Part shown: positions 40,886-60,324 of the stretch, one piece after another
Position numbering within the stretch: position 1 is the first letter of the stretch
How the letters are laid out: every line of letters begins with the position of its first letter
Virus record (IMG/VR): IMGVR_UViG_3300020160_001428
Coordinates: 8,408-72,407 of that record
Source: a virus
Length of the DNA: 64,000 nucleotides
Reading direction: 5' to 3' (one strand)
The notes under the pieces: model-generated
Seen by the model: the letters and a program-made list of their open reading frames with translations, nothing else
What the model was told of the DNA's origin: nothing
Database searches by the model: none
Program-made: the position numbers and the translations under genes

Positions 40886-41532
40886 TTTTTAATATCCTGT
40901 TGTATACTAGTAACTCCGTGTCCTTTATGCGTATGAAAAATATACACATTAGGCACTGTATCTACAGCATTGTTATATGCTGTTAAAATCTTTGTCCTAT
41001 CATGTCCATCTACTTCTTGCACAAACCAGCTGTATTCTTTAAAGAACTGAATAGTAGGTTTAATTTTTAAAACGTCACTGACGTTTCCCGTAACTTGTGC
41101 ATTGTTATAATCAATAGTTAAGAATATATTCTTAATATTATGATGCCCGATAAACTGGATAGCTTCTAAGGTATTACCCATTTGTAGTGCGGCGTCGCTA
41201 ATGTTGACCCACACACGCTTATCTGTAGTCATAGCAATACCAATGGCAACACCGAGTGCATTGCCCATTGTTTCTTCACCATAGTCTACAAATACAATTT
41301 CATCGTGTTTGACTCCTACACTTAGGTCTTCGATCTTATCTAAGAAGCCTAATTTCTGCCATACTAGATAGTATAACTGTGCTCCAAATGGTTTGCCTAT
41401 TACAATATGATCTTTGTAAGGTACAACAATCTGTTCTGTGAACAATACATCAACATAGTCAAGCATACTCATAGCACTGGCGATATGACTTAGGCCATTT
41501 TGATAAGAATATTCAAGTAGCTGACGTTTCAT
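40816..41532 (-). CDS. Transketolase N-terminal (TPP-binding) subunit
   Basis: SHIASAMS, MGNALGVAIG, SDAALQMG...IDYN, VDGHD, THKGHGV. Confidence 0.8.
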   Translation of the reverse strand: MKRQLLEYSYQNGLSHIASAMSMLDYVDVLFTEQIVVPYKDHIVIGKPFGAQLYYLVWQKLGFLDKIEDLSVGVKHDEIVFVDYGEETMGNALGVAIGIAMTTDKRVWVNISDAALQMGNTLEAIQFIGHHNIKNIFLTIDYNNAQVTGNVSDVLKIKPTIQFFKEYSWFVQEVDGHDRTKILTAYNNAVDTVPNVYIFHTHKGHGVTSIQQDIKKWHYKKIETLTELQSLVQELQDT

Positions 41533-44872: not shown

Positions 44873-45622
44873 TCACATTAAGAAGCATTTATTTTTTGGA
44901 CAAATGCCGTCTGTTTTTATTCTATAACAACAATTATACATTTCCAATTGCGGACTGTATAAAAAGTACTTGTCTTTGTATAAACAAGGTTTTCCCTTTG
45001 GGCTAAATGTCACACTGGCCCAAACTTCAGATCTAGGTTTACCCAACCGAGTTACTTCTTCAAATTTTATAATCTTACTATAGGCCGGGTCATTTTTTAA
45101 TTTAAGATATTCTTGCAATGCAATATTGCTTCGACCATCACCAAAATCTGTAATAGGCGTTAGATACACGTTGCCGGTTTTGGTATGTTCTTTTACCTTA
45201 AGATAATACCATATTGCTTCTTTGCCGCTAAACATTACATCGATTACCCTACAGGTAATATTTTCTTTAAGGATGTCTTCTATATCTTCATGGCTAACTT
45301 CAGTTGGATGTATGCTAGCCTGCAGGGTATAAGGCTCGCTAATGGTTTTCATTACTTCAATGCTGTGTTTGCTAAGATTAGTCTGAATGACAAATGGTAT
45401 TTGAAATTCATTAAAGCACTTAATAATATATCCAATTTCAGGATGCACAAATGGTTCGCCACCAAAGACAAATACCTCAACGCCCGGATACGTATCTCCT
45501 AGCATCTTGACAAATGTTCTTAGTGTGTTGTGATCTGTAACATGATGTATACTTTTGTCCAAGTTGGAACAATAGTAACAGTTGTAGTTACATTTCATAG
45601 TGACTTCCCATTCAACTTGCAT
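44873..45622 (-). CDS. Radical SAM protein
   Basis: CNYNCYYC, GGEPF, QTN; C-terminal Cys cluster. Confidence 0.9.
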   Translation of the reverse strand: MQVEWEVTMKCNYNCYYCSNLDKSIHHVTDHNTLRTFVKMLGDTYPGVEVFVFGGEPFVHPEIGYIIKCFNEFQIPFVIQTNLSKHSIEVMKTISEPYTLQASIHPTEVSHEDIEDILKENITCRVIDVMFSGKEAIWYYLKVKEHTKTGNVYLTPITDFGDGRSNIALQEYLKLKNDPAYSKIIKFEEVTRLGKPRSEVWASVTFSPKGKPCLYKDKYFLYSPQLEMYNCCYRIKTDGICPKNKCFLM

Positions 45623-46520
45623 TCTTTACCTTAAGTTGTTTTAGTAGCCCGTCACAGTTGCAGGCCTTATGCGGACAAATCATGGGAATTGTTTTAGTGA
45701 TGTTTTTAAAGAAATCTGGATTACGCAATAGATTTACGTCATCTTCTTTTGCTAGACAAAACTTTACTACATTTCCACGCACATCAATTTCATAGTTGTT
45801 GTTATAGCAACTCCAACCTTTAAAATTAGTTAGTCCTTGTTGAAAGACTTGATAATCATTAAACCGGTCGTTGTCATAGGCTAGATCTTTTTCTATTTCA
45901 TCTTCAAAGAACTTAAAGTATTCCCAAAATTCTTTGCGATAGTTAAACAATTTCTGTATAGTATTTCCGTAGATAAAATGAGGGTGTATTTTGAGTCCAG
46001 GTATTCCCTTGCAAATTTCATACATTTCTTTTATCTGTGGCCACAGTCGTTTATCGTGGTGTAGCATAATATTAACTTTACACTTGTACCCACGTTCAAC
46101 CATGTGTTTCATGTTGTTGACAAATCTAACAGGGTCAGTGCAATCAGCAGGATGATAGCTGAATAAAAATGCTAACCTATCATAGTGTGGATGAGTTGTT
46201 AAATCCTTTTCAGCATTAGTTACTACGTAGACAAATTGAAACTTTTCTAATGCAGAAATCTTATCTAGTATATAATAGTAGTGTGGTCCGATAGTGGGTT
46301 CTCCACCTAGTAGGCCCAAGTTGAAAGGCAGGCTACTTCTATCCAGTGCTTCAATAACGCCGTCGATAGTCTGCTTGCTAGATATTTTACCCCACTCTTT
46401 TCCATACTCGTTTCGAGCATAGCAGTAGGAACAATGCAGTTGGCAAATGGTCAAACTATCCCAATGTACATTAATGTGATCAGGATCTTGTTGTATATGA
46501 TGTTGTTTTACGTAGTCCAT
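45612..46520 (-). CDS. Radical SAM protein
   Basis: CQLHCSYC, GGEPT; FKGWSC...C...CPHKACNC. Confidence 0.9.
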   Translation of the reverse strand: MDYVKQHHIQQDPDHINVHWDSLTICQLHCSYCYARNEYGKEWGKISSKQTIDGVIEALDRSSLPFNLGLLGGEPTIGPHYYYILDKISALEKFQFVYVVTNAEKDLTTHPHYDRLAFLFSYHPADCTDPVRFVNNMKHMVERGYKCKVNIMLHHDKRLWPQIKEMYEICKGIPGLKIHPHFIYGNTIQKLFNYRKEFWEYFKFFEDEIEKDLAYDNDRFNDYQVFQQGLTNFKGWSCYNNNYEIDVRGNVVKFCLAKEDDVNLLRNPDFFKNITKTIPMICPHKACNCDGLLKQLKVKNAS

Positions 46521-47449
46521 GATCTCTCTTTATAGTAGTTGGTCATTCTTCTCGATGGGCAGATGTCATTTGGACACGTTTCTTTTTTAACAATATCTCC
46601 GCCTAGATATAAAGGTAACTTCTTTCCAGTACAGGTAATATCAATAGTGCCATCTATCCTAACCGTTAAACTTGCAGGAGTACAGGTATAACCTTTAAAC
46701 TTATTTAGGCCTTGATATTCTATCTCGTAATCTTTTAATATTCTTTGACTGCCGTCATCAAAGGTACAGTCAACTTCTTCAAAGTAGGTCCACCCTCCCA
46801 TTGCACCGTCTGTGTTTTCAGCTTCTTCCAAGTATGTATGAAATGTGTTAAAAAATTCATCTGTATAGTTTGGGGTAAAGTCTTGTGTTGGTGCTAGTAT
46901 GCAAGGCTTAAATTCAATATTGTTAGTCTTTAAGAAATTAAGAAACTCTAAGGTAGTTGTCCATAATGCAGTATCGTCACTCATACTGACATGTACTGAG
47001 AATCGTATATCGGGCAATTTGTTTATTTCTAAACATTTATTAAAAAACTTAGGGTGTGCATACTGTGGATGATAGGAAGCAAATACAACCAATTTTCCTG
47101 CGCCTATATTACTGAGGGTATCATAAAACTCGACAGGTTTAACCAAATTAGTAAAAAATGATATGTCCTGACATTGCTCCATATCAGCTAATCCTTGAAC
47201 AACTTCTTGCACATAAGGATATAACGTAGGTTCACCTCCGGTAATGCAGATATTAAATGGCATCTTAATGTTATTCAGTCGGGCTAATGTTATTTGGTGA
47301 TTAGCAGTATGATCGGGTTTTGAAAAGTCGTTAGACAATGATCTCAGAACTGGACAGTACGAGCATTTAAAATTGCACCAGTTAGTTAATGGCCAGTCAA
47401 TAAAGAGGCGTTCTACTGGTCTTCCACAACTAAGAATTGGGTTTATCAA
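46508..47449 (-). CDS. Radical SAM protein
   Basis: CNFKCSYC, TGGEPT; FKGYTC...C...CPNDIC. Confidence 0.9.
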   Translation of the reverse strand: MINPILSCGRPVERLFIDWPLTNWCNFKCSYCPVLRSLSNDFSKPDHTANHQITLARLNNIKMPFNICITGGEPTLYPYVQEVVQGLADMEQCQDISFFTNLVKPVEFYDTLSNIGAGKLVVFASYHPQYAHPKFFNKCLEINKLPDIRFSVHVSMSDDTALWTTTLEFLNFLKTNNIEFKPCILAPTQDFTPNYTDEFFNTFHTYLEEAENTDGAMGGWTYFEEVDCTFDDGSQRILKDYEIEYQGLNKFKGYTCTPASLTVRIDGTIDITCTGKKLPLYLGGDIVKKETCPNDICPSRRMTNYYKERSWTT

Positions 47450-48098
47450 CGGCGTTTCCTTCTAAACAATGATATGTTGTATTTACTAGGGAATTAGCCT
47501 GTGAAAAAGAAATGTTGTCTCCACCATCTATTGTCTGATAATAGAATACCTTGTTTAGGGTTTTGATCGACTTGGCTTGAAGTGCGGCATGGACTGTTAG
47601 TTTGATATCGTTGTGTATGTTACTGTCCATGGGAAACTCAAAATCAATTATACAATCACGTTTATATATGTGCTGTGATAGTTGCAGATGCTCGGTGTTT
47701 AATCTATCTAAAAACTCGTCCGATGTTAACTGACTATTTTTGTACAATGTCATAAAAGTTAACATATTTGATGTTTCATATGTAGGGCAATAATTCCCTA
47801 CTATTAAGTCAGCGTCTAATCTAATAGTTAGAAAGTCTTTATGCAGATAGTCATCATCTTCCAAATAATAAACATATTCGCCCTGAGCAATTTCTAATAA
47901 AAATTTATACTTTTCACATAGACTACCTGATGCATAGTAGAAGTATTTTACCTGCGGATGTTTAATTTCTTCAATATCGCAACTATCATTATTAACTAAT
48001 ACTTCAACTCCGGGAGTAATCTGTGCAAGAACACTTTCTAAACAACGAGTAAACAGCTTAGGTCGATTATGAGTAAGGATTAAAATACTTAAATGCAC
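47430..48098 (-). CDS. Glycosyltransferase family 2 (GT-A)
   Basis: LSILILTHNRP, VNND, YLEDDD. Confidence 0.85.
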   Translation of the reverse strand: MHLSILILTHNRPKLFTRCLESVLAQITPGVEVLVNNDSCDIEEIKHPQVKYFYYASGSLCEKYKFLLEIAQGEYVYYLEDDDYLHKDFLTIRLDADLIVGNYCPTYETSNMLTFMTLYKNSQLTSDEFLDRLNTEHLQLSQHIYKRDCIIDFEFPMDSNIHNDIKLTVHAALQAKSIKTLNKVFYYQTIDGGDNISFSQANSLVNTTYHCLEGNAVDKPNS

Positions 48099-49078
48099 TT
48101 TATCTTATCTCCATTAACGGGTCTGGGTTCGACGTGGCCTTTTAATTCGTTTTCAATTCCGTCGCAGACAAAAAAGTATTTGCATCCTGTACATTTGACT
48201 GTTTTAAAATAACTTTGCAGTCTAATACGCTCTGCTTCTACTAGGCATTGTTCAACTTTTTCTTTTTGACTGTAGAGTTTACTAGTATCTAGATTACCAC
48301 TGTAAACTGCTTTGTTCCAATCTTTTAAATCATAAATGTGTTGATAGTGTCCTTTTACATGATCAACATATCCTTCCATATAACACGGAGGAAAGTATCG
48401 AGCATTTACTTCAATTAGGTTTTGTAATTTATCTATATACCGTTTGACATAGTCGCACACTAGGGCATAATCAATTATGTTACCGTTAGCATTGTCTTGC
48501 CAATAATTCAATGCAATAAAATTTACCTGTGTGGGCTTAAGATCTAGCATTACTTGAGTGTCAATATTATTGTAGTTTAATTCACAAATGGTAGTGTTTA
48601 ATCGTACCTCAATGCCCAATTGATGTGCGTTAGCAATTGCTCGTAGTATGTTATCAAATGCACCTTTCTTACCTACAATTGTGTCGTGTACGTCTGCGGT
48701 AGTGGCATGCAGACTAAACAGTATTTCTCTTAGCCCGAGATTGTAAGATCGCTTGGCAAACTCAATGTTACTAAACTTTCCGCCGTGACTTAGACAACTG
48801 ATGCGTTTAAATTTATCCTGACAATACTCAAGTATTTTAAACCAATTAGGTTCTACTGAGCTTTCACCGCCAGACAGGTCAATTTCTTCAATGCCATATG
48901 CTAAAAGATAATCGACTCTATCAGTTATTTGTTTAAGAGTATCGCGTTCAGTAAGATGATTTTTATAATAACAAAAGTCACAAGAATAGTTACAAAGTTT
49001 ACCCGTGTCTAGTTTTGCCCTAGAATTAATAGGACGATCATAATCTATCTCAAGTTGATTAACACTTAATTTGTTCAT
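48089..49078 (-). CDS. Radical SAM protein
   Basis: CNYSCDFC, SGGE; C-terminal CTGCKYFFVCDG. Confidence 0.9.
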   Translation of the reverse strand: MNKLSVNQLEIDYDRPINSRAKLDTGKLCNYSCDFCYYKNHLTERDTLKQITDRVDYLLAYGIEEIDLSGGESSVEPNWFKILEYCQDKFKRISCLSHGGKFSNIEFAKRSYNLGLREILFSLHATTADVHDTIVGKKGAFDNILRAIANAHQLGIEVRLNTTICELNYNNIDTQVMLDLKPTQVNFIALNYWQDNANGNIIDYALVCDYVKRYIDKLQNLIEVNARYFPPCYMEGYVDHVKGHYQHIYDLKDWNKAVYSGNLDTSKLYSQKEKVEQCLVEAERIRLQSYFKTVKCTGCKYFFVCDGIENELKGHVEPRPVNGDKIKCI

Positions 49079-49940
49079 TTAATAACTTTAAAAATTCATC
49101 GTTAGGTAATAAGGTCGTGCCTATTAGTCCGTCTTTTTTTCTTACCTCAAGAGCACAATCATAATAATCTATATCATATATTACATCTTTGCCGTAATGC
49201 TCACATTCTAATATGAACCGACTGGAGCAATCGAAGTGTCCAGGAGTTCTAGTGTATATGTATGTACTAAATTTGTTCCACATATTATCAATCGGTACTA
49301 GATGCACATTATCTAACGAATACAAGTTAGTATTATTAGTTAGAACAATGTTTTTTTCAAATCCGTGTTTTTTTATTAAAGATTCTAGTTCTATTTGAGG
49401 AATTTCTCTACAAAGGTCAGTAAGATAAAACATTGCCGCAATCTCTGAAACTTCGAGCAATGGTTTATACTTAGAAAATAGTATTTTCTTTTTATAGTTT
49501 ACTAACATTAAATCAGGTACACAATCTCCGTAGATTTCAAAGTCCTGTAACAAAAATATATTTGATTTTGTTTTAGTATAGTATGAAAAATCAGACTCAG
49601 AACAACGAAATAGAAATATGTTTTCAACAAGTAAATCTGCATTCTTTAATCTAGGACTGCCGTCAACAACTAAAAGATTCTTAGCAATTATAACCTTAGG
49701 AGCATGATGCTCTATTATATCATCTACAGTTAAATTATCGTATTTTTGGTTAATTGCATTAATAAATTCTTGTTTAGTTGTACCGTCCGATAATAATATG
49801 CAGGGTTTTAATTTAGTATATTCTTTAACTGCATAATAGTAGTCAATCATTTCAAACATGTGGCCACACACTCCAAATTTAAATTCAAATGAAGTTGTTA
49901 GTACGAGATCATAGGATTTTAAATTTACAATGTTGGACAT
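49059..49940 (-). CDS. Hypothetical protein, possibly GT-B-like
   Basis: C-terminal DCSSRFILECEHYGKDVI resembles a GT-B nucleotide-binding segment. Confidence 0.55.
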   Translation of the reverse strand: MSNIVNLKSYDLVLTTSFEFKFGVCGHMFEMIDYYYAVKEYTKLKPCILLSDGTTKQEFINAINQKYDNLTVDDIIEHHAPKVIIAKNLLVVDGSPRLKNADLLVENIFLFRCSESDFSYYTKTKSNIFLLQDFEIYGDCVPDLMLVNYKKKILFSKYKPLLEVSEIAAMFYLTDLCREIPQIELESLIKKHGFEKNIVLTNNTNLYSLDNVHLVPIDNMWNKFSTYIYTRTPGHFDCSSRFILECEHYGKDVIYDIDYYDCALEVRKKDGLIGTTLLPNDEFLKLLNEQIKC

Positions 49941-50722
49941 GTGATTTCCTGTAGAGATAACGGTTGGTAATCTAATTCATCAAACAAACTAGAAGGCAAC
50001 TGTTCTGCAATTTCTTGAGGAATGTCTAATCGATTATTTGGCAATATTTTTTTAAAATTATCTGCTAGACAGTTGAATTGATCTACATCTAGCGGACTTA
50101 GACTACACATGGGCATTAGATTATGATATTCATCTTGAGTTAATATATTATTATAACTTCTATAGCATGACAAATCAATAGATTGATTGCCAATTTGAAT
50201 CATTTTAGTTTCTAAAATATTTTCAAATTTAACTGTTTGAACAGTTGGCATCTGTTTTAATATGACGGATTGTATAAGAGACGACTCATTACGTTGTTTT
50301 AGCAGTTTGACGCCGGCTGTTGTATTATAGGGTGCCGAGTCTTGAGTAATAGAATCAATAGTATATATTGCTGACGGATTGCGAGTTATATTGATCGCGC
50401 ATACGCTGTCAATATCACTAGTAACCATATTGACAAATGTTTTAGAAAAACTTCCGCTAATGACTAATATTGGATATGGTCGATTATGGTACTGAGATAG
50501 AAAGGCCGTGTAGTCACCACCTTCTGGAAATACTGTATCTGTTTTAACACCAAAGTCAGTCCAGATGGCACGGAACTGCATTTTTAATTGATTATTAGTA
50601 TTATTATCTAATAGTTCTTGGTAATTATTGTCAGTGTGTTTGATCGAGTTTAAATGCTGTGTAATAGTCCAAGCGATGGTGGCTTTTTTAATAGTCTCCG
50701 ACCCGCTTAGGATAATTAACAT
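49925..50722 (-). CDS. P-loop/sulfotransferase-like protein, paralog of 50728
   Basis: ILSGSETIKK, INITRNPS, VKFENIL. Confidence 0.55.
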   Translation of the reverse strand: MLIILSGSETIKKATIAWTITQHLNSIKHTDNNYQELLDNNTNNQLKMQFRAIWTDFGVKTDTVFPEGGDYTAFLSQYHNRPYPILVISGSFSKTFVNMVTSDIDSVCAINITRNPSAIYTIDSITQDSAPYNTTAGVKLLKQRNESSLIQSVILKQMPTVQTVKFENILETKMIQIGNQSIDLSCYRSYNNILTQDEYHNLMPMCSLSPLDVDQFNCLADNFKKILPNNRLDIPQEIAEQLPSSLFDELDYQPLSLQEITCPTL

Positions 50723-50727
50723 GATTA

Positions 50728-51780
50728 TTAGTCGACAATGTCGTCATACGTTAACGGCTCGTATCCTAGTTCAGTAAACAAATTTTCTGGCATGTTTGCG
50801 GATATGACAGCTTTAATTTCAGATATTGTTGCTGGCGTAGATCTTAACGAATTAATATAAGTCGTAATCTCTTCGGTTATGTTAGGGCTTTGACCAGACG
50901 CATAATGTTGTAATTCTATATTAATTGCATCTAATGTTTCTGCTGATATAATTTCTAAAGGTATTAAGTTTTCATGTTCCCATTGTGTCAGCACACTATT
51001 AAAATTATCGTACCCTGCTGGCACTGTAACTTCAACACCATTAACTGTAAATTTACCAGCTGTAATAATGTCTTCAAATCTAATAGTAGTAATATCATCA
51101 AATTTAGCTAATACGGCGGCGTTGGCAATTGAGTAAACTAATTTTCTAGCATCTAATTCAGGAGTTCTATTTTTTTCAGGATTTGCATAGTATGCATCGT
51201 CTTTACGATTTAATAAAATGCAAGTAGACGGATTGCGGATAATGTTTATCACCGTAACATTCTCAGCCCCAATATCAGTTCTTACACTGTTAATAAATGC
51301 TTTAGAAAATATACCAGTAATAACATGTACGTCTCCCAGTCTATTTGCATAGTTTGCTAATACATCAGCATATGAGTGAGGATGTAACAATGGAATTTTT
51401 GGTGAACTGTTTCCGTAGTCAACCGTGTCTGTGATACCAAAATCGTGTGCGAGATCAATAAAGAAATTGCTAAAATGATTATTTCGACCACCTGTTAAAA
51501 ACAAGTTATCGTTTAGTTCTAGAATTTTGTCAAATATTGCATTACCTTCTAGATCAATTACTCCGTCGTTATCTAAATCGATCAATAACTCGTTAGTATG
51601 CGGTTGATCACCGATAGCCGGGGAATATACTACTTTTCCCGTAGGGTCTGTTACTCTAAATGGCTCAATGGAAAAATCAACAGTATGTCCATCGACTACA
51701 AACCTATTTAAGGCAGCAATTATCTTTCTTGCAAAAAACTTTTTGTGTATAGTTTCTACACCACTTAAAATTACTAACAT
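50728..51780 (-). CDS. P-loop/sulfotransferase-like protein with DxDxDG motif
   Basis: ILSGVETIHK, INIIRNPS, IRFEDII; DLDNDGVIDLE. Confidence 0.55.
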   Translation of the reverse strand: MLVILSGVETIHKKFFARKIIAALNRFVVDGHTVDFSIEPFRVTDPTGKVVYSPAIGDQPHTNELLIDLDNDGVIDLEGNAIFDKILELNDNLFLTGGRNNHFSNFFIDLAHDFGITDTVDYGNSSPKIPLLHPHSYADVLANYANRLGDVHVITGIFSKAFINSVRTDIGAENVTVINIIRNPSTCILLNRKDDAYYANPEKNRTPELDARKLVYSIANAAVLAKFDDITTIRFEDIITAGKFTVNGVEVTVPAGYDNFNSVLTQWEHENLIPLEIISAETLDAINIELQHYASGQSPNITEEITTYINSLRSTPATISEIKAVISANMPENLFTELGYEPLTYDDIVD

Positions 51781-51782: not shown

Positions 51783-52193
51783 TTATCTCCTTAAATAGTC
51801 TTGTATAACGGCGTTGACTGCATTATCATCATTATAATCAGTTAACATTTGAAGTTGATTTATTACAGAAGAATATTCATTTTTATTCTTCTCAATTTCT
51901 TTAATATTATCTTTTAATGTAAGATATTTTTCAAGATTGTTAATTAAATTCTCATCGCCTGTTTCAATAATTTTAATATAACACTCTTCTTTGTTACTAT
52001 CAGTAATGATAATTCCTTTACTGATAAATTCATTGTTTAATAACATAAAAGAAACAAAGTCAACTAATGTAAACGATAATAAATTATCTCCCATAATACC
52101 GCGTACTTTGGTTTTGACTGCTTTCGCGGCTTTACCTGCATAGGTACTAGCATCAATTCCTTCTACTTCTTCATAATTAGTGATTTCTTTCAT
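51783..52193 (-). CDS. Hypothetical protein (cluster accessory)
   Basis: 136 aa directly after the S74 ORF. Confidence 0.7.
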   Translation of the reverse strand: MKEITNYEEVEGIDASTYAGKAAKAVKTKVRGIMGDNLLSFTLVDFVSFMLLNNEFISKGIIITDSNKEECYIKIIETGDENLINNLEKYLTLKDNIKEIEKNKNEYSSVINQLQMLTDYNDDNAVNAVIQDYLRR

Positions 52194-52443
52194 TTTTTAA
52201 CCTTTCAATTTCGTCAGATAATTCTTGTACTGCTTTGATCAATGGAAAAATTAACTGATGCGGATTAGCTACAATAAAGTATCCGTCTCGATCTTTTTCT
52301 AAAATAGTGTATTTTTCTATTGGCCAAATTTCATTTATATTCTGTGCCATACAGCTCATAGTTTTTCTTACTGTATCACCTTTAGTGTTGTCAGTATATA
52401 TATGCTCTGCAGGTCTTAGCTGTTTTATTTTCTCTAAACTCAT
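52177..52443 (-). CDS. Stand-alone C-terminal part of an S74 (intramolecular chaperone) domain
   Basis: LEKIKQLRP...MAQNINEIWP...LIFPLIKAVQELSDEIERLK; TAATG overlap with upstream gene. Confidence 0.75.
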   Translation of the reverse strand: MSLEKIKQLRPAEHIYTDNTKGDTVRKTMSCMAQNINEIWPIEKYTILEKDRDGYFIVANPHQLIFPLIKAVQELSDEIERLKNERNH

Positions 52444-53087
52444 TACATATACTCAATTTCAGTTTTAACTTGTTCATCGCTATAGTTGCAATTACAGGTA
52501 CATGAGTAATTGCAGTTACAGGTGCAGTAGTTGCAGTTACATGTGCAATAGTTGCAGTTACAGGTGCAGGCGATCCTAGAGTCATTAATTTGATTTACTA
52601 AGGAATTTATATGAACAGCTCTAATCTTTGATCCAACTAATGCGGCAAATGATGTTGCATTGCTAACTGCGGGCACCTGTGGATAGGTTATAGTTTCCGG
52701 TTGTGGGACTGGACCATATACTGGTATCTGGTTGCCAGTCGGGTTTCCGTAAGGATCAAGTTCTGGAGTATAGCCAACTACTACTTGCCCGTTAGGACTA
52801 TTGATATTCTGGTTAGCTCCATTTTGTGCTGTTGTTGCCGCTGGTCCTGCAACGCTTACAGCAGTAATAATAGTGTCTAGGCGGGCCGCTGAAACTGTTC
52901 CCGAGTAATAGCCGGCAGGTATAACGATATTAGATTGGCCTCTTCGAACTCTTTCATTGATTGCAGCCTGAAAAATGCCAGCCATGGCTGAGCCACTAAT
53001 AGTAGTGCTAGTTCCAACGTAGCCGCCGATGTACCCTAGAGCATTTGATGCGTTGGTTCCGTAAACGTTTGCAACTAAACTTGCCAT
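52443..53087 (-). CDS. Cys-rich repeat protein 3 (candidate radical SAM substrate) with S74 cleavage stub
   Basis: Ends CTCNCNYCTCNCNYCTCNCNYSCTCNCNY-SDEQVKTEIEYM. Confidence 0.85.
   Translation of the reverse strand: MASLVANVYGTNASNALGYIGGYVGTSTTISGSAMAGIFQAAINERVRRGQSNIVIPAGYYSGTVSAARLDTIITAVSVAGPAATTAQNGANQNINSPNGQVVVGYTPELDPYGNPTGNQIPVYGPVPQPETITYPQVPAVSNATSFAALVGSKIRAVHINSLVNQINDSRIACTCNCNYCTCNCNYCTCNCNYSCTCNCNYSDEQVKTEIEYM
52482..52568 (-). repeat. 21-nt tandem repeat encoding (CTCNCNY)x4
   Basis: Four units with synonymous variation. Confidence 0.95.
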
Positions 53088-53093
53088 TTATAA

Positions 53094-53927
53094 CTACTCC
53101 ACCTCAAAATTAATTGGTAATTTTGAGTAGTTAACAAAATAGTATCCGTCTAGGTCTTTACCTAGAGCACATTCGTATTTGGTGCCTTGTAGTTCTTGAG
53201 CCATTACTCCACGATAGCGAGTCGATTTATCTTTGATATAGTTCCAAGAATAAACATTTAAATTATTTTCAACTTTAATAAATTTGATATTTTCTTTTAA
53301 TCTTATATCACTACCATAATTACAATTACAGGTACATGCATAATTGCAGTTACAGGTGCAGTAGTTGCAATTACAGGTGCAGTAGTTGCAATTACAGGTG
53401 CATACAGCGCCGGCAGAATTAATAGCACTAATTAGTGTATTAATATCTACAGAACTTATCCGTTGGTCTTTACTGAACGATGTTCCAACTGACGGCGCCG
53501 GTGATTGTGGATAGGTTATTACTTCTGGAGTAGGTACTGCGGCGTATGTTGGGGTTGAACCAACTACATTTCCGTAACCGTCAAGGATCGGAGTTGAACC
53601 TGTTTGTACTACTCCGTTAGAACTATTGATATTCTGATTAGCTCCGTTATATGCTTGACTGGCCGCTGGGCCGGCCTGCTGAACTGTTGTAATAATCTCT
53701 TGAACCCTAGCCCCTAATATTTTTCCACTAAAATAACTTGCCGGAAGTTGAATTGCTGAGCCGCCGCGGCGACTTCTTTCTGCAATGGCTTTATTTGCTA
53801 TATCAACTAATTTGTTTTCTCGCATTACGTCAGTAGATAACACGCCGGCCAGGTTATGAGTTACGGCATTAGTGGCATTAGTTCCGTATATACTTTTAGT
53901 CAGTCCCGAAAAAGTTGGTAATGCCAT
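53094..53927 (-). CDS. Cys-rich repeat protein 2 with fused S74 chaperone domain
   Basis: (CTCNCNY)x4-G-SDIRLKENI...YSWNY...GVMAQE...VNYSKL. Confidence 0.88.
   Translation of the reverse strand: MALPTFSGLTKSIYGTNATNAVTHNLAGVLSTDVMRENKLVDIANKAIAERSRRGGSAIQLPASYFSGKILGARVQEIITTVQQAGPAASQAYNGANQNINSSNGVVQTGSTPILDGYGNVVGSTPTYAAVPTPEVITYPQSPAPSVGTSFSKDQRISSVDINTLISAINSAGAVCTCNCNYCTCNCNYCTCNCNYACTCNCNYGSDIRLKENIKFIKVENNLNVYSWNYIKDKSTRYRGVMAQELQGTKYECALGKDLDGYYFVNYSKLPINFEVE
53316..53402 (-). repeat. 21-nt tandem repeat encoding (CTCNCNY)x4
   Basis: Four units. Confidence 0.95.
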
Positions 53928-54500
53928 TTACATGTACTCCACTTGACTTTTAAGTTGTTCATCGCTATAGTTGCAGTTACAGGTACATGAGTAATTGCAG
54001 TTACAGGTGCAGTAGTTGCAATTACAGGTGCAGTAGTTGCAGTTACAGGTACATACAGCACCAGCAGTATTAATTTCTGTAATTAGTGCATTGACAATAG
54101 CACTAGTTATTCTTTGGCCGGCTATAAAGTTTCCTGAGCCGCTAGGAACTGCTACTTGACCGTAAGTAGTTATTGCTGGAGGATTGCCACTATTAGCGCC
54201 ACCTCCATAATTGGTATTGTATGCTTGACTAGTTGCGGGTCCTGCAATTTCTACATTAGTTTTAATTTCTTGAATTTTGCTTGCAAATAATCTACCAGTA
54301 TAATAATTAGAAGGAATAGCAATTGCCGAACCACCGCGACGTGTTCTTTCTGAAATAGCTTTTTGTGCTATATTGTAAAATATTCCGCCAGACATCTTAT
54401 TTGTGTTATTGACTTGTGTAAGTCCATGAGATACTGAATCGCTGGCGTCAGTACCGTAGATGTCTTTTACTAATCCCGATGTTATATTTGGTAACGCCAT
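53928..54500 (-). CDS. Cys-rich repeat protein 1 with S74 cleavage stub
   Basis: Ends (CTCNCNY)x4-SDEQLKSQVEYM; AAGGAGA/GGAG RBS. Confidence 0.85.
   Translation of the reverse strand: MALPNITSGLVKDIYGTDASDSVSHGLTQVNNTNKMSGGIFYNIAQKAISERTRRGGSAIAIPSNYYTGRLFASKIQEIKTNVEIAGPATSQAYNTNYGGGANSGNPPAITTYGQVAVPSGSGNFIAGQRITSAIVNALITEINTAGAVCTCNCNYCTCNCNYCTCNCNYSCTCNCNYSDEQLKSQVEYM
53967..54053 (-). repeat. 21-nt tandem repeat encoding (CTCNCNY)x4
   Basis: Four units. Confidence 0.95.
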
Positions 54501-54512
54501 CGCTCCGTCTCC

Positions 54513-54911
54513 TTAAATTGCTTTTGATAAAAAGTCTAAATCTTCTTTAGCTTTATTCTGTGCTAGAAATTTGTCATAGTCGTCAAGATCAGCAGTTGAT
54601 GTAATAAAATCTAGTGTGTTCTTATCAACCTCCTTGTCTGGCATTTCTTGATTTTCATTCATATCTTTGATAATCTGCATGACTAAATCAGTTAACGATA
54701 TACCTAAAATAGAAGTGACCATTTCTATTTGTTTAGAAATATCAACAGTTTCAACTGGTTCAGTTCTTTCAGACATTTCTTTGATAATGTTCATAGATAG
54801 AATAAATCCATCTAGCATAATTGTAGAAACTCCTGGTTCATCTTCAACTTCCATAAGGTTGATAATCTCTAGGATTTTTTCTAATTTTTCGTTTATTGTC
54901 ATCTGAGTCAT
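54513..54911 (-). CDS. Acidic helical hypothetical protein
   Basis: 132 aa, ATGA-coupled to the rSAM gene. Confidence 0.7.
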   Translation of the reverse strand: MTQMTINEKLEKILEIINLMEVEDEPGVSTIMLDGFILSMNIIKEMSERTEPVETVDISKQIEMVTSILGISLTDLVMQIIKDMNENQEMPDKEVDKNTLDFITSTADLDDYDKFLAQNKAKEDLDFLSKAI

Positions 54912-55780
54912 TTTATTTCTTTGTCCTTAAAATCATGAAATTTTGGAGAGTTTTCGTAGTTACCGTAGGTCGTTACATTACCCTCGTTAGTAAAATATGT
55001 CTTCAATTCTTTGCGTTCACCACAACCATTGCACATGTCGCAAAACAATTCGCATACAGGTACAGATACTGCTTTATTTATCCAGTCATTTCTAAGCTGA
55101 TTTTTAATCTCGGTTAGCTTTTCGATGTCCTTTGGGGTTAGTGTATCCCAGGCCACACTAGTGATCATGCGCTCTGGATTAAAAGTTTTTATCAATTTGG
55201 TCATGTCTTTATACACATGGTTGATATTAAACTTATGTATGGTATAACGCATACGATATCTAAACTTGTTTTTTACTAGATTAGTAAAGACTTCAATCAT
55301 ACTTCTAGTACTGTCCATACCATTATGATATACCCGATCCTTGTTGCCAATTCCGTCAAAGCTAACATCTATTGATAACAGTCCCTTTTTATAAAAGAAG
55401 TTGTTCATTGTTTCATCAATAAAGTTTTGACTTAGGTATTTGATACCGTTGGTTGTCATGTTAAAATGTACATTACGTTTCTTACTAAAGGCATAGTCCA
55501 TAGCAAAGCAGACGTTCTCCCATTCTAGCGTAGGTTCGCCGCCAAACAATACAATTAGTGTTTGGCTTTTAGGATCTTCTCTAGCAAGTATTGCATCTAC
55601 ATGGTTGACAATATCTTCTTTGGTTAGTATCTGTGGCGGTCGGCCTGGTAAGTCTTCGTAACAATACGTGCAGGCTAGATTGCATTTATTAGTAAAGTAT
55701 AGAACGTTAACAGCCGAACCTACAGGGGCAGGTTTGTCTGTCTTATCTCCTACAAAAAAATCACTAACAATTGGTATCAT
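54908..55780 (-). CDS. Radical SAM protein with short Cys-rich tail
   Basis: CNLACTYC, FGGEPTL, TTNG, SFDG; CELFCDMCNGC. Confidence 0.92.
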   Translation of the reverse strand: MIPIVSDFFVGDKTDKPAPVGSAVNVLYFTNKCNLACTYCYEDLPGRPPQILTKEDIVNHVDAILAREDPKSQTLIVLFGGEPTLEWENVCFAMDYAFSKKRNVHFNMTTNGIKYLSQNFIDETMNNFFYKKGLLSIDVSFDGIGNKDRVYHNGMDSTRSMIEVFTNLVKNKFRYRMRYTIHKFNINHVYKDMTKLIKTFNPERMITSVAWDTLTPKDIEKLTEIKNQLRNDWINKAVSVPVCELFCDMCNGCGERKELKTYFTNEGNVTTYGNYENSPKFHDFKDKEIK

Positions 55781-56070
55781 TGAATAATCATCTCATGCGA
55801 GTTTTTATATCTATTTTCTTGTGGACGACTTTTGGCTTCTTTAATAATGTGACTCATACTAGATAAGAATTGTCCATAGTCAAATTTATAGTCGTATAAG
55901 TGTCCGCGATTAAGATCGTCATAGCCAACGTATTGGCTGTCTACTTTTGCTTTGCCTTTACGGGCTTCTTCAATTTGCAGTGACAATTCATCTACAGACA
56001 ACACACGATCTGAAACGTGCTCTACTGGAGCCATCTCAACTTTAACTGGAATCTTTAAAATGCTTTTCAT
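55777..56070 (-). CDS. Small hypothetical protein between rSAM genes
   Basis: 97 aa, translationally coupled on both sides. Confidence 0.7.
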   Translation of the reverse strand: MKSILKIPVKVEMAPVEHVSDRVLSVDELSLQIEEARKGKAKVDSQYVGYDDLNRGHLYDYKFDYGQFLSSMSHIIKEAKSRPQENRYKNSHEMIIQ

Positions 56071-57194
56071 TAGTTTCTACACTCCACACCTTCATTTTCT
56101 ACACCCACGTTTTGTAAGTAGTGTAGAATTAGATCTTGAAATACTGGAACATCTTTACATTCTTCTACAACACGCATGGCCTGTTCGTTAGTGATGTGAA
56201 AGATTTCGCAGATGCTGTCTAGGGGTTTGTTGCCGTTGGTAACTTGACTGTATGTACAGCCTGCATTACAAACTTGTTTTAATTGGCAAGGCTCGCACTT
56301 ATTAAAGTTTTGTGGATTGAAAATGTCTTGATAATAGTTGAAGTCATATTCACTGTCCATCTTCATAATCTTTTTACTAGCAAAGCGAGCACACGGATAG
56401 AACTCACCACTACTCATTAATACTCCGCCATGAGTACCAGCAAAGCAACCAAATGGTCTCTTACCTTTAACTAGACCGTATAAGATGTCTAGGATAGACA
56501 AACGTAGGAAGCCAACTGAACAAGGTATGCCTGCTTTTAGTTTGGCAATATAGCAGTCAGTTAATCTGATAAGTTCTCTACGAAAATCATGTAGGTCATC
56601 TTCTGTCCATACATCATCACGCACAATAGAAAAGTCAGGATGTTCAATGCCCCAACTTAACAAGAACTCGAAGTTCTCAGTCATGTCTTTGGTATTCCCA
56701 GGCCATATCATTACCTTACAGCCGTTGGTTAGATCTGTAATGATGTCCTTCTTGTGGTTATACATGTCAAGGATGCCATCAAACAACTCTCCAGTCTCTG
56801 GATTAGTGTTTTCTAACAATGGCAGTAAAGGACGAGTAGTATTAGAACTCATGCCGTCAAACGACCAGCTGACTCCTACTCCGTGTTCTTTTAGATACTT
56901 GGCTTTGTCTGCATCAATCATTGTTAGGTTAGTAATAATGTTAATGCCTTTGCATCTTGGATCGGCTGTTAGCTTAGGCACAGCATAGGTAATTAGATCC
57001 CAATTGAGCAATGGCTCACCACCAAAGAAGCTGACATGAAACTCGCTGTCATTACTGCGCTTCATTAGATTATACAGCTCTGGCATAGCATTATCAAACG
57101 TCTCAGGTTCCATCCATGTAGGACGGTTGGCCACGTAACAATATGGGCACCCAAGGTTACATTTTTCAGTTACTGATATCTCTAGTGTAAACAT
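56070..57194 (-). CDS. Radical SAM/SPASM protein (peptide/protein maturase type)
   Basis: CNLGCPYC, FFGGEPLL; CFAG...YPC...CEPCQLKQVCNAGC...IC. Confidence 0.93.
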   Translation of the reverse strand: MFTLEISVTEKCNLGCPYCYVANRPTWMEPETFDNAMPELYNLMKRSNDSEFHVSFFGGEPLLNWDLITYAVPKLTADPRCKGINIITNLTMIDADKAKYLKEHGVGVSWSFDGMSSNTTRPLLPLLENTNPETGELFDGILDMYNHKKDIITDLTNGCKVMIWPGNTKDMTENFEFLLSWGIEHPDFSIVRDDVWTEDDLHDFRRELIRLTDCYIAKLKAGIPCSVGFLRLSILDILYGLVKGKRPFGCFAGTHGGVLMSSGEFYPCARFASKKIMKMDSEYDFNYYQDIFNPQNFNKCEPCQLKQVCNAGCTYSQVTNGNKPLDSICEIFHITNEQAMRVVEECKDVPVFQDLILHYLQNVGVENEGVECRN

Positions 57195-57195
57195 A

Positions 57196-58302
57196 TTAGA
57201 CTGTACATTGCTCCGCTTTAATAACGATAGTTGGTTTCTTGTATGTCTTTAGAGCAGTACGTAGAGCATGGTGTACAATCTCGTTTGACTTAAAGACTTT
57301 ACATACTTGCCAATTGGCAGTATGGTCACTCCACTTTTCCAAGTAAGTATCTTTCTCTGACTTTTCGTATGTGGCCGCATTACACTTCATACAGAATTGT
57401 GCATCGCAACTCATGCAGTCAAGTGGTTGATTCTTTAGTGCGTCTTTGTACATTGCTGTCTTTTCTGCAATGAGTGCATCGATGTCTGGTGCCTTAAGAA
57501 TATTGCCCATAACGTGTGCATGACTTTCTTTGTACATACAACCGTGGCATGGACTAATGTCGCCGTTAAGGTCAACCGATACATAGTTAATACCAGATGC
57601 ACATAGGGCACGGCTTTGAGTGAACCAACCAAACTTTTCTGGAGGTAGTTTGTTTAGATAAATGTATTTGGCAATCTTAGCAAGTCCTTCATTAAGTACT
57701 GCTAGTCTAGGCATAAACTCTTCTTCAGTTAAATGACTATACATGTCCGGTGTTGGAAAATAGTTCTCATCAAACTGTAACACATCAAGGAACGCTTCGT
57801 AGATTAAGTGGAAGTGTTCAGCAGTTAATACTGATTTCATTTTAACAGCTAGGCCTGCTTGTTTTGCCGCAAGGTAGTTTGATTTAACTAAACTTGAACT
57901 TGGGTTACCTGTCTTATCTATACGTGTGATATCGTTTACTGGCTTGCCGTCATAGCTAACCTGTATCTTCAGCCTACCTGGCATTGCTTGATGAAAGCGC
58001 ACTAGCTCTTTCATATATTTCTTTAGATACACACCATTGGTATAAAAGAAAAAGTTGTAGTTAGGATTGTCAATGTACTTTTCCATCACGCCACGGCAGA
58101 ATTCCCAATTTACAAACGGCTCGCCGCCCCAAAAGTAAATATCTCTCTTTGGGTCTTTAAACTTGCCCATAAACTCTTCAATGTTCTCTAAGGTCACAGA
58201 AGTATTTTCTTCGTAGGCTGTTGAAAGCCCGCATTCAAATCCTTCTGAGCAATAGGTACATGCTAGATTGCAGGTACTGGTTACGTTTAAGTCAATTACC
58301 AT
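57196..58302 (-). CDS. Radical SAM/SPASM protein
   Basis: CNLACTYC, WGGEPF; CASG...PCHGC...CMSC..FCMKC...VC. Confidence 0.93.
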   Translation of the reverse strand: MVIDLNVTSTCNLACTYCSEGFECGLSTAYEENTSVTLENIEEFMGKFKDPKRDIYFWGGEPFVNWEFCRGVMEKYIDNPNYNFFFYTNGVYLKKYMKELVRFHQAMPGRLKIQVSYDGKPVNDITRIDKTGNPSSSLVKSNYLAAKQAGLAVKMKSVLTAEHFHLIYEAFLDVLQFDENYFPTPDMYSHLTEEEFMPRLAVLNEGLAKIAKYIYLNKLPPEKFGWFTQSRALCASGINYVSVDLNGDISPCHGCMYKESHAHVMGNILKAPDIDALIAEKTAMYKDALKNQPLDCMSCDAQFCMKCNAATYEKSEKDTYLEKWSDHTANWQVCKVFKSNEIVHHALRTALKTYKKPTIVIKAEQCTV

Positions 58303-59045
58303 TATCTTTCCTTAATGTTTCTATATTTGTTATTCAATTCTATCACTGTGTTTAATAGTGGTAGCTCGTATGTACTAGCTAACGCTTTGATATCTTTTGG
58401 CAAGCAAGGGCCGCCAAATCCTCTTTGGCCGTCGGGTCCTGGAACTTGGAAATGATGTGAGCCCATCCACGGATGTTCTGACAATATCTTTGCTACTGTA
58501 TCCCATTCAACACCTACTTCTTGAGCAACATCAAACATCTGATTCATAAATGTAACCTTTAAAGCATAAAAGCTGTTCATAGTGTATTTAACCATACTTG
58601 CCGTAGCAATATCAGTAATGAAAACCTTGTTTAAATCAACGGTAGAATACCGTTTGTAAACATTAACGAGCTCGTTAGCACGTTTACCGCCTATTAAAAC
58701 CATTGGTGGTTTGACAAAGTCTTCTAGGCTAGTGGCCCTAGAAAGAAACTCTGGATTGTAAACAACATCAAATACTTCAAGGTATTGAGGAAGTATTGTA
58801 CTTTTGACAACTGTTATGCCTGAATATTGTTCATTCTTAATATCTGCAAGAACACGTTTAAGTATAGCATAGTTTGTATCGTCTGTTGGAGTAGGCACAC
58901 AGACAAATATAGCGTCTGGGTTTGCGGCCACAACTTCTTTAACTGACACTGTATTATACTGTGGGTCTGAAATGATACAGGGTGTTTTAGAGAACCCATA
59001 TTCTACGGCCTTACCTACCATGCCATATCCGATTATTCCAATCAT
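58302..59045 (-). CDS. UDP-glucose/GDP-mannose dehydrogenase family (short phage form)
   Basis: GYGMVG, CVPTP, KST, NPEFL, GFGGPCLPKD; lacks the C-terminal domain. Confidence 0.88.
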   Translation of the reverse strand: MIGIIGYGMVGKAVEYGFSKTPCIISDPQYNTVSVKEVVAANPDAIFVCVPTPTDDTNYAILKRVLADIKNEQYSGITVVKSTILPQYLEVFDVVYNPEFLSRATSLEDFVKPPMVLIGGKRANELVNVYKRYSTVDLNKVFITDIATASMVKYTMNSFYALKVTFMNQMFDVAQEVGVEWDTVAKILSEHPWMGSHHFQVPGPDGQRGFGGPCLPKDIKALASTYELPLLNTVIELNNKYRNIKER

Positions 59046-59133: not shown

Positions 59134-60324
59134 ATGATTAATAAACAACCATTCACTGAAATTTTATCAGGACTAAAAGACTCTGGCAAGTATCGAGTGT
59201 TCAACGACATACTTAGAGAGAACGGCAAGTTTCCACAGGCCATCTGGTACGGGCCTTATAATATTAAAACAATCACCAATTGGTGTAGCAACGACTATCT
59301 AGGCATGGGACAACATAAGGTTGTGCTCGATGCCATGCATACTGCCCTAGATATGACCGGCGCAGGGTCAGGCGGCACTCGAAACATTGCCGGAACTAGT
59401 CATTATCATGTGGCTCTTGAAATGGAACTAGCGAAATTACATAACAAAGCATCTGCACTATTATTTTCAAGTGCGTATGTTGCTAACGAATGGACGTTGA
59501 TTGCGCTGTCTAAGATTATTCCAAACATTGAATACATCAGTGACAGTAACAATCACAATAGTATTATTGTAGGTATTAGCCATAGTCGTGCCAAGAAAAG
59601 CGTATTCCGTCACAACGATATGGAAATGCTAGAAGAACTGTTACAGGCTAGTAGAGCCGCTGGTAACATTCCTTGTATTGTTTTTGAATCAGTTTATAGC
59701 ATGGATGGCGACGTAGGCCTAATCAAAGAGATATGTGACCTAGCAGACAAGTACGAAGCAATGACCTACATTGACGAAGTACATGCTGTTGGACTATATG
59801 GAGATCACGGTGGTGGTAAACTAGAGCAGTTGGGCCTACAGCATCGAGTTGACATAGTTAACGGTACACTGGGAAAAGCCTTTGGAGTGCAAGGCGGGTA
59901 CATTGCCGCTGATGTGGATGTTGTGGATGCTATTCGTAGTATTGCCGCAGGCTTTATCTTTACTACATCGATGTCGCCAGTTACTTGTGCAGGCGCATTG
60001 GCCGCTGTTAAGTATCTTAAAGACCATAATGAGCTACGTGAAGAACATCAAGACCGTGCTCGTAAACTAAAGTATCGATTGGACAAGGCTGGGTTGCCTG
60101 TAATGCAATGTAGCACTACTCATATTGTTCCTGTACTAGTAGGAGATGCTGTACGCTGTAAAGCAATGAGTGATACGCTATTAACTGAGTTTAACATCTA
60201 TGTACAGCCAATCAACTATCCCACAGTAGATGTGGGAACGGAGCGGTTGCGCTTTGCACCTACTCCGTTACATGATGATGGAATGATTGAAGATCTAATC
60301 GAAGCTCTTAAAACTCTGTTTTAA
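59134..60324 (+). CDS. hemA: 5-aminolevulinate synthase (Shemin/C4 pathway)
   Basis: [52 protein letters not shown]. Confidence 0.94.

Follow-up and report, generated by a model that had tools for sequence, protein, structure and literature searches.

The stretch of DNA analysed here (the window) spans 64,000 nt and corresponds to positions 8408-72407 of the 72.4-kb IMG/VR virus record IMGVR_UViG_3300020160_001428. CheckV rates this record as 21% complete, which makes it part of a very large phage genome. The minus strand of the window contains a cassette in which genes coding for three radical S-adenosylmethionine (rSAM) enzymes precede those of three paralogous proteins (A, B and C), each of which carries a tandem array of cysteine-rich heptads and, behind it, all or part of an S74 chaperone domain. 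This cassette is real, undescribed and widespread in aquatic giant phages, and it is also present in cultivable Campylobacter phages.

Gene content of the cassette and its array proteins

The cassette is a tightly packed minus-strand block, with genes overlapping or at most 17 nt apart, that consists of the following genes in order:

58302-59045, minus strand: truncated UDP-glucose/GDP-mannose dehydrogenase-like (UGDH-like) protein, 247 aa, the cassette's first conserved gene (Pfam PF00984, 6.2e-18; PF03721, 3.6e-10)
57196-58302, minus strand: rSAM/SPASM enzyme, 368 aa (Pfam Radical_SAM, 3.1e-12; SPASM TIGR04085)
56070-57194, minus strand: rSAM/SPASM enzyme, 374 aa (best NCBIfam match PapB, 1.1e-37; Cys pattern)
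55777-56070, minus strand: conserved 97-aa protein of unknown function, between rSAM genes (synteny)
54908-55780, minus strand: third rSAM, 290 aa (Pfam Radical_SAM, 3.3e-13; best NCBIfam match PapB)
54513-54911, minus strand: conserved acidic protein of 132 aa, immediately upstream of the array genes (synteny)
53928-54500, minus strand: array protein A, 190 aa, with N-domain, array (53967-54053) and 12-aa S74 stub (53931-53966)
53094-53927, minus strand: array protein B, 277 aa, with N-domain, array (53316-53402), Gly and complete S74 (about 53097-53312; Pfam PF13884)
52443-53087, minus strand: array protein C, 214 aa, with N-domain, array (52482-52568) and 12-aa S74 stub (52446-52481) (phrog_26958)
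52177-52443, minus strand: separately encoded remainder of the S74 chaperone, 88 aa (PF13884 match under the cut-off; phrog_1980)
51783-52193, minus strand: highly conserved all-helical 136-aa protein after the array genes (phrog_25260, 4.2e-15)

This arrangement agrees with an original prediction on this DNA, which had placed the repeat proteins in a single operon behind two rSAM/SPASM enzymes and a third rSAM. Four runs of one freshwater study contain 83-98% of the sampled words of the window. Contigs from three other runs, which belong to the same study and hence are not independent populations, are identical to positions 52100-54600 (0 differences) and span both the A/B and the C/88-aa junctions, so that sequencing or assembly error at the stops of A and C is ruled out. 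These contigs end at the arrays, which is usual for short-read assembly at repeats. A scan for promoters and terminators in the window gave counts no higher than in shuffled sequence, and a DNA megablast of the region against phages gave no match.

The three paralogues described originally, with their invariant core of 29 aa and 12 Cys, are present as the minus-strand ORFs (open reading frames) A, B and C. In each of them the array consists of three copies of CTCNCNY, then S or A, then a fourth copy, and it occupies residues 150-178 in A, 176-204 in B and 174-202 in C. The six-frame translation of the window contains 12 copies of CTCNCNY in total, four in each of these proteins and none elsewhere. 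All three share the same layout: an N-domain predicted to be folded (from the AlphaFold2 model of B), a conserved helix (I.A..IN.LI..IN.AG), the Cys-heptad array and an S-x4-K site. The N-regions measure 149 aa in A, 175 aa in B and 173 aa in C, with only 58-84 identical residues between pairs; the motifs said to be shared by them (YGT.A, AI.ER.RRG.S, AGPA, ITY.Q, IN.L...IN) are seen in the alignment. As for the array DNA (87 nt), A and C differ at 5 nt, all synonymous, as had been stated for the whole set, whereas the other two pairs differ at the S/A codon as well: A and B at 7 nt (6 synonymous codons plus the S/A change), B and C at 8 nt (7 synonymous plus the S/A change). Almost exclusively synonymous differences between arrays, next to diverged N-regions, point to purifying selection on every residue of the array and not on Cys alone. 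Gene conversion as the cause of the identity is ruled out, given that synonymous sites differ between the paralogues.

AlphaFold2 modelling of B (58 sequences) gave a mean pLDDT of 82.6, with a confident N-domain (about residues 20-175, ending in a helix at 159-174) and a confident S74 part; the array reached only 32-34. A Foldseek search of protein B against the PDB gave nothing at E <= 0.001, and the best Z of a wide VIA search was 5.5, within the noise range. In BFVD the S74 part alone was matched, and those matches are auto-processing chaperone-domain proteins, several of them unnamed. The prediction of a trimer of B residues 1-205 scored 0.00, which is evidence in neither direction. A tblastn search of B against phages matched the S74 part only; the low-complexity filter probably masks the arrays. 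The search of array protein A against Pfam and NCBIfam returned no family, whereas phrog_26958 matches residues 149-203 of protein C (1e-13).

The array family comprises 696 database clusters at E <= 0.001. The 120 members listed come from metagenome-type sources, and their names are only 'hypothetical protein' or 'Chaperone of endosialidase'. Among 1051 heptads from 244 proteins (uncorrected for relatedness), position 2 is T in 82%, position 4 is N in 83%, D in 13% and Q in 2.4%, position 6 is N in 97%, and position 7 is Y in 94% and F in 4%. The spacers between heptads are usually a single A, S or G. The heptad of the array is thus 43% Cys and contains two C-x-x-N pairs. No paper was found in the literature for 'CTCNCNY'. 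Several distant array proteins (L012, L021, L023, L050, L053, L054, L082, L085 and L086) start with Met-Ala-Cys-x-Gly-His or a similar Cys/His-rich stretch, which may be a second metal or modification site, and another lineage starts with MGSPCP.

Radical-SAM enzymes and their association with the arrays

An rSAM core followed by a SPASM region with seven auxiliary cysteines is found in the 368-aa and the 374-aa enzymes, and the 290-aa enzyme has a single 4-Cys motif. In the 368-aa enzyme CX3CX2C starts at residue 11, the C-terminal cysteines lie at 234/252/255/296/299/304/307/334, and SPASM TIGR04085 is matched with 30.7 bits, above the cut-off of 27. The 374-aa enzyme has CX3CX2C at residue 12 and the canonical SPASM pattern of seven Cys, with CX2CX5CX3C at residue 300 as part of it. 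In the 290-aa enzyme CX3CX2C is at residue 33, and there are only four C-terminal cysteines (243/247/250/253). These starting positions leave no space for an N-terminal recognition element (RRE) of the kind known from ribosomally synthesised peptides that undergo post-translational modification (RiPPs). The three enzymes are mutually 25-32% identical, over the core alone.

The best NCBIfam match of the three enzymes is PapB (NF047865), with 130 bits for the 374-aa enzyme, 64.5 for the 368-aa enzyme and 86.7 for the 290-aa enzyme against a cut-off of 340; the 374-aa enzyme aligns to positions 4-316 of the 330 of this profile. The next best are SCIFF, QhpD, nif11, CcpM and similar peptide maturases, all far under their cut-offs: for instance, SCIFF TIGR03974 gave 63.5, 54.1 and 56.8 bits for the three rSAMs (cut-off 425), and QhpD TIGR03906, among the better matches of these hidden Markov models (HMMs), gave 70.6 bits (cut-off 453). 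TIGR04463, to which CrpC belongs, gave 30.6, 23.9 and 23.7 bits (cut-off 525). Judged from their sequences, the three rSAMs resemble Cys-peptide cross-linkers in general, without membership in a curated family.

Several of these relatives are characterised. NxxcB forms a beta-thioether between Cys and Asn, with Asp, Gln and Ala tolerated as acceptors, and PapB and CteB form beta- and gamma-thioethers (PMC9389541). CrpC, a SPASM rSAM from Methanococcus voltae described in 2026, installs ranthionines, shown by mass spectrometry, on the large protein CrpA, which has ten 17-residue Cys repeats with C-x-x-Q/D motifs; the repeat region was modelled as a low-confidence beta-helix, and the N-terminal domain of CrpA, rather than a leader alone, aids binding by CrpC (PMC13692751). 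The C-x-x-N pairs of the heptad, together with the precedents of NxxcB, PapB and CteB and of CrpC/CrpA, are the grounds on which we infer thioether stapling of the arrays.

The likeness to each of these systems has its limits. PapB, CteB (SCIFF) and NxxcB share with the window enzymes the best HMM matches, the 7-Cys SPASM and a Cys-to-Asn/Asp beta-thioether chemistry that suits C-x-x-N/D/Q. Unlike their precursors, those of the window system and its relatives are proteins of 190-830 aa that contain folded domains, the enzymes leave no space for an RRE, and Pfam and PHROG searches of the cassette found neither a leader peptidase nor an exporter. A short leader-plus-core precursor is thus not what was found: A, B and C measure 190-277 aa and have an N-domain that is predicted to fold, and relatives carry the array internally. 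QhpD also places Cys-Asp/Glu thioethers into a protein subunit (QhpC) rather than into a natural-product peptide (PMC13692751), but QhpC, a small subunit of an enzyme, receives three specific links, and neither repeats nor a trimeric fibre nor a phage are involved. CrpC/CrpA is the closest case, with a SPASM enzyme beside a large Cys-repeat protein, a conserved N-part and C-x-x-polar acceptor motifs; it differs from the window system in its archaeal cellular host, the 17-residue repeat instead of a heptad, the RRE of CrpC and its membership in TIGR04463, and the lack of S74 and of a viral context (the word 'phage' occurs 0 times in the available text of PMC13692751). The statement that no characterised system has this architecture therefore holds for viruses in the literature searched, where no description of array maturation by rSAM enzymes was found; SPASM-installed thioethers on a large Cys-repeat protein, however, have now been demonstrated in the archaeal CrpC/CrpA pair.

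It could also be proposed that the rSAMs act on the arrays by another chemistry, such as epimerisation of alternate residues, conversion of Cys to formylglycine, or C-C or ether links at Tyr7 or Thr2. The mutual distance of the three enzymes and the conservation of Tyr7 would suit this idea, and similarly weak HMM matches were obtained to cyclophane formers (YhhB, AmcB), DynA and the anaerobic sulfatase maturase. Nevertheless, the strongest and longest HMM alignments are those to PapB, SCIFF and QhpD, which are thioether formers, and a substrate so rich in Cys has the C-x-x-N/D/Q spacing of known thioether motifs, so that we regard a different chemistry as very unlikely.

The pairing of arrays and enzymes was examined in both directions. 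In the forward direction, back-translated patterns of two tandem heptads gave 28 viral loci, to which 12 loci with the CxCDCNY variant and two contigs of metagenome-assembled genomes (MAGs) were added. An array ORF was found by rule in 41 of these 42 loci, collapsing to 30 distinct array proteins, and an rSAM relative was defined as a blastp match with E < 1e-5 to any of the three rSAMs of the window. Such a relative is present in the locus for 21 of the 30. The distance between array and rSAM genes is 0-523 nt in 18 of the 21, 1095 nt in L016/L031 and 2.2-2.3 kb in the CPt10 and CP220 groups. Among the nine without a relative, five (L011, L014, L022, L027 and L048) have less than 1 kb of sequence on the relevant side, and two (L046 and L055) stop 0-1 nt past the array gene in a lineage that has the rSAM downstream, as in L078 and L080. 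Of the nine array proteins without an rSAM relative, seven thus have too little flanking sequence to judge and two are real local absences.

In the inverse direction, a profile of the 368-aa enzyme gave 70 viral loci. At least three tandem heptads occur in the locus for 19 of the 20 closest (30-97% identity), the exception being L081. The next six (L085-L090, 25-30% identity) failed the regular expression, and inspection by eye placed a Cys-motif protein as the very next gene in all of them. In four the array is degenerate and hexad-like, (CxCNxx)x4, ending in CNY-SD..LK, with a whole S74 in L086, L087 and L090 and a split one in L089; the other two have shorter Cys motifs, without S74. The regular expression, by which alone the remaining 44 loci (mostly partial matches of low identity) were judged, found none. 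The array gene therefore stays next to the enzyme gene down to 25-30% enzyme identity.

A search of 50,697 phage records for cultured relatives found the array family (CP220 gp140, phrog_26958) in 15 records, which represent 11 Campylobacter Firehammervirus phages. The 368-aa-type rSAM occurs in these very 15 records and, as a weak match, in one faecal contig. The 374-aa type occurs in 15 records from those 11 phages, with weak matches in eight others, and the 136-aa family likewise in 15 records from those 11 phages. The pairing claimed by the original prediction is thus borne out by 21 of 30 array proteins, 19 of the 20 closest enzyme loci and all 11 cultured phages with an array. From neighbourhood in both directions and from co-occurrence in cultured phages, the link between array and enzyme is strong and well supported. 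The parts of the cassette, their order, their conservation and their co-occurrence are direct observations.

Homologues, though uncharacterised, are also found in cultured Campylobacter phages. CP220 gp140 (CPT_0180) and its Firehammervirus orthologues are true homologues of A, B and C, with the same helix and a (C[TL]C[DN]CNY)x6 array, and these phages carry both SPASM rSAMs and the 136-aa family, as the window phage does. In contrast to A, B and C, gp140 has 534 aa, its array lies in the middle of the protein with further Cys motifs after it, and there is no S74. The gp140 gene adjoins a gp63-like 'tail fiber attachment catalyst' gene, gp015 (the 136-aa homologue) adjoins a baseplate hub gene, and gp019 is annotated as UDP-glucose dehydrogenase. 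Timms et al. (2010) recorded the 21-bp repeat in CPT_0180, without a function, and 11-12 rSAM genes in CP220/CPt10, which in the available text were read as metabolic and not connected to the repeat (PMC2853527). A literature search on Firehammervirus fibres and receptor binding listed nothing on gp140. In two records (CP21, HE815464.1 74991-76592; WX1, OP654737.1 20183-21742) the gp140 homologue is labelled 'putative N-acetylneuraminate pyruvate lyase', and elsewhere 'hypothetical'; nothing in the data seen supports this enzyme name.

The S74 chaperone, whole and split

The original prediction gave S74 followers to all three substrates. This is correct for B, in which Pfam PF13884 matches residues 206-247 (31.7 bits, gathering cut-off 22, 1.9e-07). 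The same search of A and C gave no match: both end 12 residues past the array with S-D-E-Q-x-K-x-x-x-E-Y-M, and the remainder of the domain is in the 88-aa gene. The core was also said to end exactly at the S74 SD site, and this is the case in A and C, where a putative catalytic S-D-x-x-x-K (Lys five after Ser) comes right after the array; in B one Gly stands between. The 88-aa ORF matches positions 16-54 of the PF13884 profile (E 0.0085; 16.8 bits, under the cut-off) as well as the tail fiber family phrog_1980 (8.9e-05), and its start overlaps the stop of C by one base (TAATG).

This split is not peculiar to the window. S74 is complete in 60 of the best 120 family members and reduced to a stub of exactly 12 residues in 56; three end at the array, and one has Cys replacing Ser. 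Homologues of the 88-aa protein come after stub-type array genes in L017, L022, L023, L025 and L042, and in L017 four stub-type paralogues are accompanied by one chaperone gene. In L089 a separate chaperone-like ORF, judged by eye, follows the stub. Two candidates for joining the frames were rejected. A frameshift fusion of C with the 88-aa ORF lacks a slippery site at the TAATG junction, and in L042 the chaperone frame opens only 20 nt past the stop of the stub, so the frames cannot be joined. For these reasons, and because the stub has exactly 12 residues in 56 of the 120 listed members, stub and chaperone are considered to be separate genes.

The reference for this type of domain is T5 pb1, in which the bond before Ser1264 is cleaved with Lys1269 as partner and a folded trimer is required; residues 1265-1276 form the loop that precedes the first hairpin of the chaperone (PMC4690869). 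From this layout, the S74 split sits at a structural boundary, and the 12-residue stub retains both catalytic residues (Ser and Lys). Protein B is like the S74 fibres of T5 pb1 and the K1F endosialidase in having the domain and a Ser-x4-Lys dyad just past the preceding segment. In T5 pb1 cleavage, which needs the folded trimer, leaves the upstream segment as the mature distal tip (PMC4690869). The window family differs from both proteins in that the segment before the site is a Cys-heptad array, and in that 56 of the 120 listed members contain exactly the first 12 residues of S74, the rest being encoded by a separate gene. A split S74 chaperone is a natural experiment on whether an 'intramolecular' chaperone can act in trans. 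We know of no description of this arrangement, and no literature search was aimed at it.

Fibre context and proposed maturation of the array proteins

The helix before the array is kept in very distant members and in CP220 gp140. Internal arrays are seen in gp140, in a MAG protein of 832 aa and in 13 of the 18 'longer' matches; the relatives with internal arrays span 499-851 aa, and some have two arrays about 200 residues apart. A profile of the N-region alone found 111 representatives in 1.84 billion proteins. Of these, 86 have arrays, and the other 25 are fragments, proteins with degenerate arrays and proteins sharing only the first helix module (N.ER.RRG) with unrelated C-termini. A conserved front with exchangeable ends would be typical of fibre families. 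In one lineage (L078 and L047/L049) the array genes come directly after genes of proteins that match tail-fibre PHROGs (3.5e-19, 2.3e-12), and the proteins that carry S74 in the matched PHROG families are annotated as tail-fibre or virion structural proteins. The fibre reading thus gains support from the S74 domain, the arrays in long proteins, the array genes after tail-fibre genes and the N-module with other C-termini. In L047 (2226-13259) the array gene comes after those of two giant proteins of 1562 and 2007 aa, which are collagen-like, rich in Gly/Ser/Ala and interrupted by repeated globular inserts, and the last 275 aa of the 2007-aa protein, as read in the near-identical L049, match tail-fibre PHROGs.

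The explanation that we consider moderately probable is the stapling of a trimeric fibre-type protein by phage-encoded enzymes through thioethers. The chemistry, the assignment of enzymes to tasks, the order of events, the trimeric state and the location in the virion are what we infer, and the steps would be the following: i) the rSAMs, which leave no space for an RRE, probably recognise the helix or the N-domain, perhaps aided by the 97-aa and 132-aa proteins, ii) they would join the Cys residues of the array to side-chain carbons of nearby residues as thioethers, the likely rings in each heptad being Cys1 to Asn4 and Cys3 to Asn6, with a third partner for Cys5, iii) S74 would trimerise the chains and cut before its Ser, in cis in B and, for A and C, with the 88-aa protein complementing the 12-residue stubs in trans, so that the array would become a free C-terminal tip. 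The outcome would be a fibre or baseplate appendage that is stapled covalently and withstands reduction. The fullest form of this proposal, with many thioether staples (2-3 in each heptad, at most 12 in a chain and 36 in a trimer) in a virion fibre tip and a split S74 acting in trans on several paralogues, is plausible, although we would not call it probable.

Several observations weigh against the stapled-fibre explanation. None of the three rSAMs reaches the PapB, SCIFF, QhpD or TIGR04463 cut-off, AlphaFold2 fails to model the array region, and the N-domain of B has no recognisable fold relative among solved or viral structures. The two true local absences of an rSAM are L047/L049 and the long form of L043; L047/L049 lack one over 13 kb on the upstream side and about 1.6 kb on the downstream side, and indeed anywhere in the contigs of 22.7 and 16.1 kb. 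In CP220 the parts of the cassette are scattered: gp136 lies 2.2 kb from gp140, and gp023, gp019 and gp015 are about 145 kb away. The cassette of the window itself lies within an island of about 24 kb of sugar-nucleotide, family 2 glycosyltransferase (GT2) and further rSAM genes, outside the tail module; this setting, with its constant UGDH-like gene, means that some or all of the enzymes could serve a glycan, cofactor or other pathway. Alternating Cys and the Cys/His-rich N-termini of distant members would also suit metal binding. No proteomic evidence was found that places a family member in the virion, and the gel bands listed for CP220 in the available text do not include CPT_0180 (PMC2853527).

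Part of these observations would be explained if the arrays were self-sufficient metal- or disulfide-held modules of a trimeric fibre and the rSAMs acted elsewhere, for example on sugars or cofactors. Some phage fibres and spikes have His-x-His iron sites. The alternating cysteines (C.C.C) would all point to the same side of a beta-strand, a Cys/His-rich start (MAC.GH...) is added in distant members, and CrpA itself is suspected of metal binding (PMC13692751). The arrays without a nearby rSAM in L047/L049 and L043 would find their place here, as would the UGDH-like gene that is always in the cassette, the sugar-nucleotide and GT2 genes around it, and the clustering of the 374-aa-type rSAM of CP220 with UGDH, distant from gp140. 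We consider this alternative unlikely, since adjacency is kept to 25-30% enzyme identity, with the array gene then as the very next gene, the best matches of the enzymes are all Cys-peptide cross-linkers and not sugar or cofactor rSAMs, and Thr2, Asn4, Asn6 and Tyr7 are conserved like Cys, beyond what metal binding needs.

It might also be argued that the product is not part of the virion but a RiPP-like or protein factor (for example one that binds metal, acts against the host or competitors, or serves as a scaffold inside the cell), with the N-domain as an oversized leader and S74 as follower protease or trimeriser. The layout is indeed RiPP-like, with a conserved N-part, a Cys-rich C-part and maturases upstream, and is shared by CrpA, which has no known structural role in the available text (PMC13692751). 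In addition, the cassette is about 20 kb from the recognised virion genes of the window, and the lack of proteomic evidence noted above would be expected. We judge such a product to be distinctly unlikely: the cassette has no leader peptidase or exporter, the N-domain is confidently predicted to fold, arrays occur within proteins of 500-850 aa, sometimes twice, the BFVD matches are auto-processing chaperone-domain proteins and the S74 PHROGs belong to tail-fibre and virion structural proteins, and array genes directly follow tail-fibre genes in one lineage. A phage RiPP that uses S74 as its maturation protease, offered originally as the alternative, fits less well for the same reasons, namely the confidently modelled N-region and the mid-protein arrays of relatives.

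As regards the other genes of the cassette, the UGDH-like gene has syntenic homologues in L007, L008, L009, L017, L028, L030, L032 and L034, and a similar 244-aa ORF opens the block in L086 (judged by eye from the printed N- and C-terminal sequence only). Syntenic homologues also exist for the 97-aa protein (15 matches, 42-98% identity) and for the 132-aa protein (16 matches, 40-90% identity), with a small acidic protein in the slot of the latter in L042; neither matches a Pfam or PHROG family, PqqD-like or other. The 136-aa protein follows the array genes in nearly all lineages and comprises 229 database clusters, none of the 120 listed being named beyond 'hypothetical protein'. Its AlphaFold2 model has a pLDDT of 91.4, no fold match was found in the PDB, and the Atlas search gave no usable match. 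With 64-96% identity among the 120 listed, this protein is conserved to a much higher degree than the N-domains of the array proteins, and distant phages have longer forms of about 200 aa. Downstream of the block, to about 44.9 kb, lies a further group of genes:

44873-51780, minus strand: co-travelling genes, namely two unknowns that are paralogues (350 and 265 aa), an unknown of 293 aa (phrog_24441), an HxsC-like rSAM (329 aa), a GT2 glycosyltransferase and three more, short rSAMs (synteny; Pfam, NCBIfam, PHROG)

These genes travel with the cassette in many loci, including the distant L086, L087, L089 and L090. On the opposite strand, just past the cassette, the window encodes a class I/II aminotransferase-fold protein (59134-60324, plus strand; PF00155, 6.3e-63), and the same biosynthetic island contains a tryptophan-halogenase-like gene (phrog_2928, 9.2e-82) beside a transketolase-N-like gene (39605-41532).

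The SPASM maturases, the Cys-repeat protein substrates (CrpA, QhpC) and the S74 chaperones are of known kinds; what is new is the union of those parts in viruses, the heptad array itself and the split chaperone. If the stapled-fibre explanation is true, it would provide the first case of a viral structural protein that is cross-linked by enzymes and matures in the style of a RiPP, and it would mean that RiPP-type radical chemistry is used by viruses for building particles and not just by cells for small natural products. Structural biology would gain a new fibre module, the Cys-heptad array, possibly a stapled beta-helix, and enzymology three new maturases, distant from one another, whose substrate is a simple repeat. 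The idea of stapling is directly testable, since the whole set is present in cultured Firehammervirus phages. It would also explain the abundance of rSAM genes in Campylobacter group II phages and in many aquatic giant phages, a puzzle since 2010 that has been read as host metabolism.

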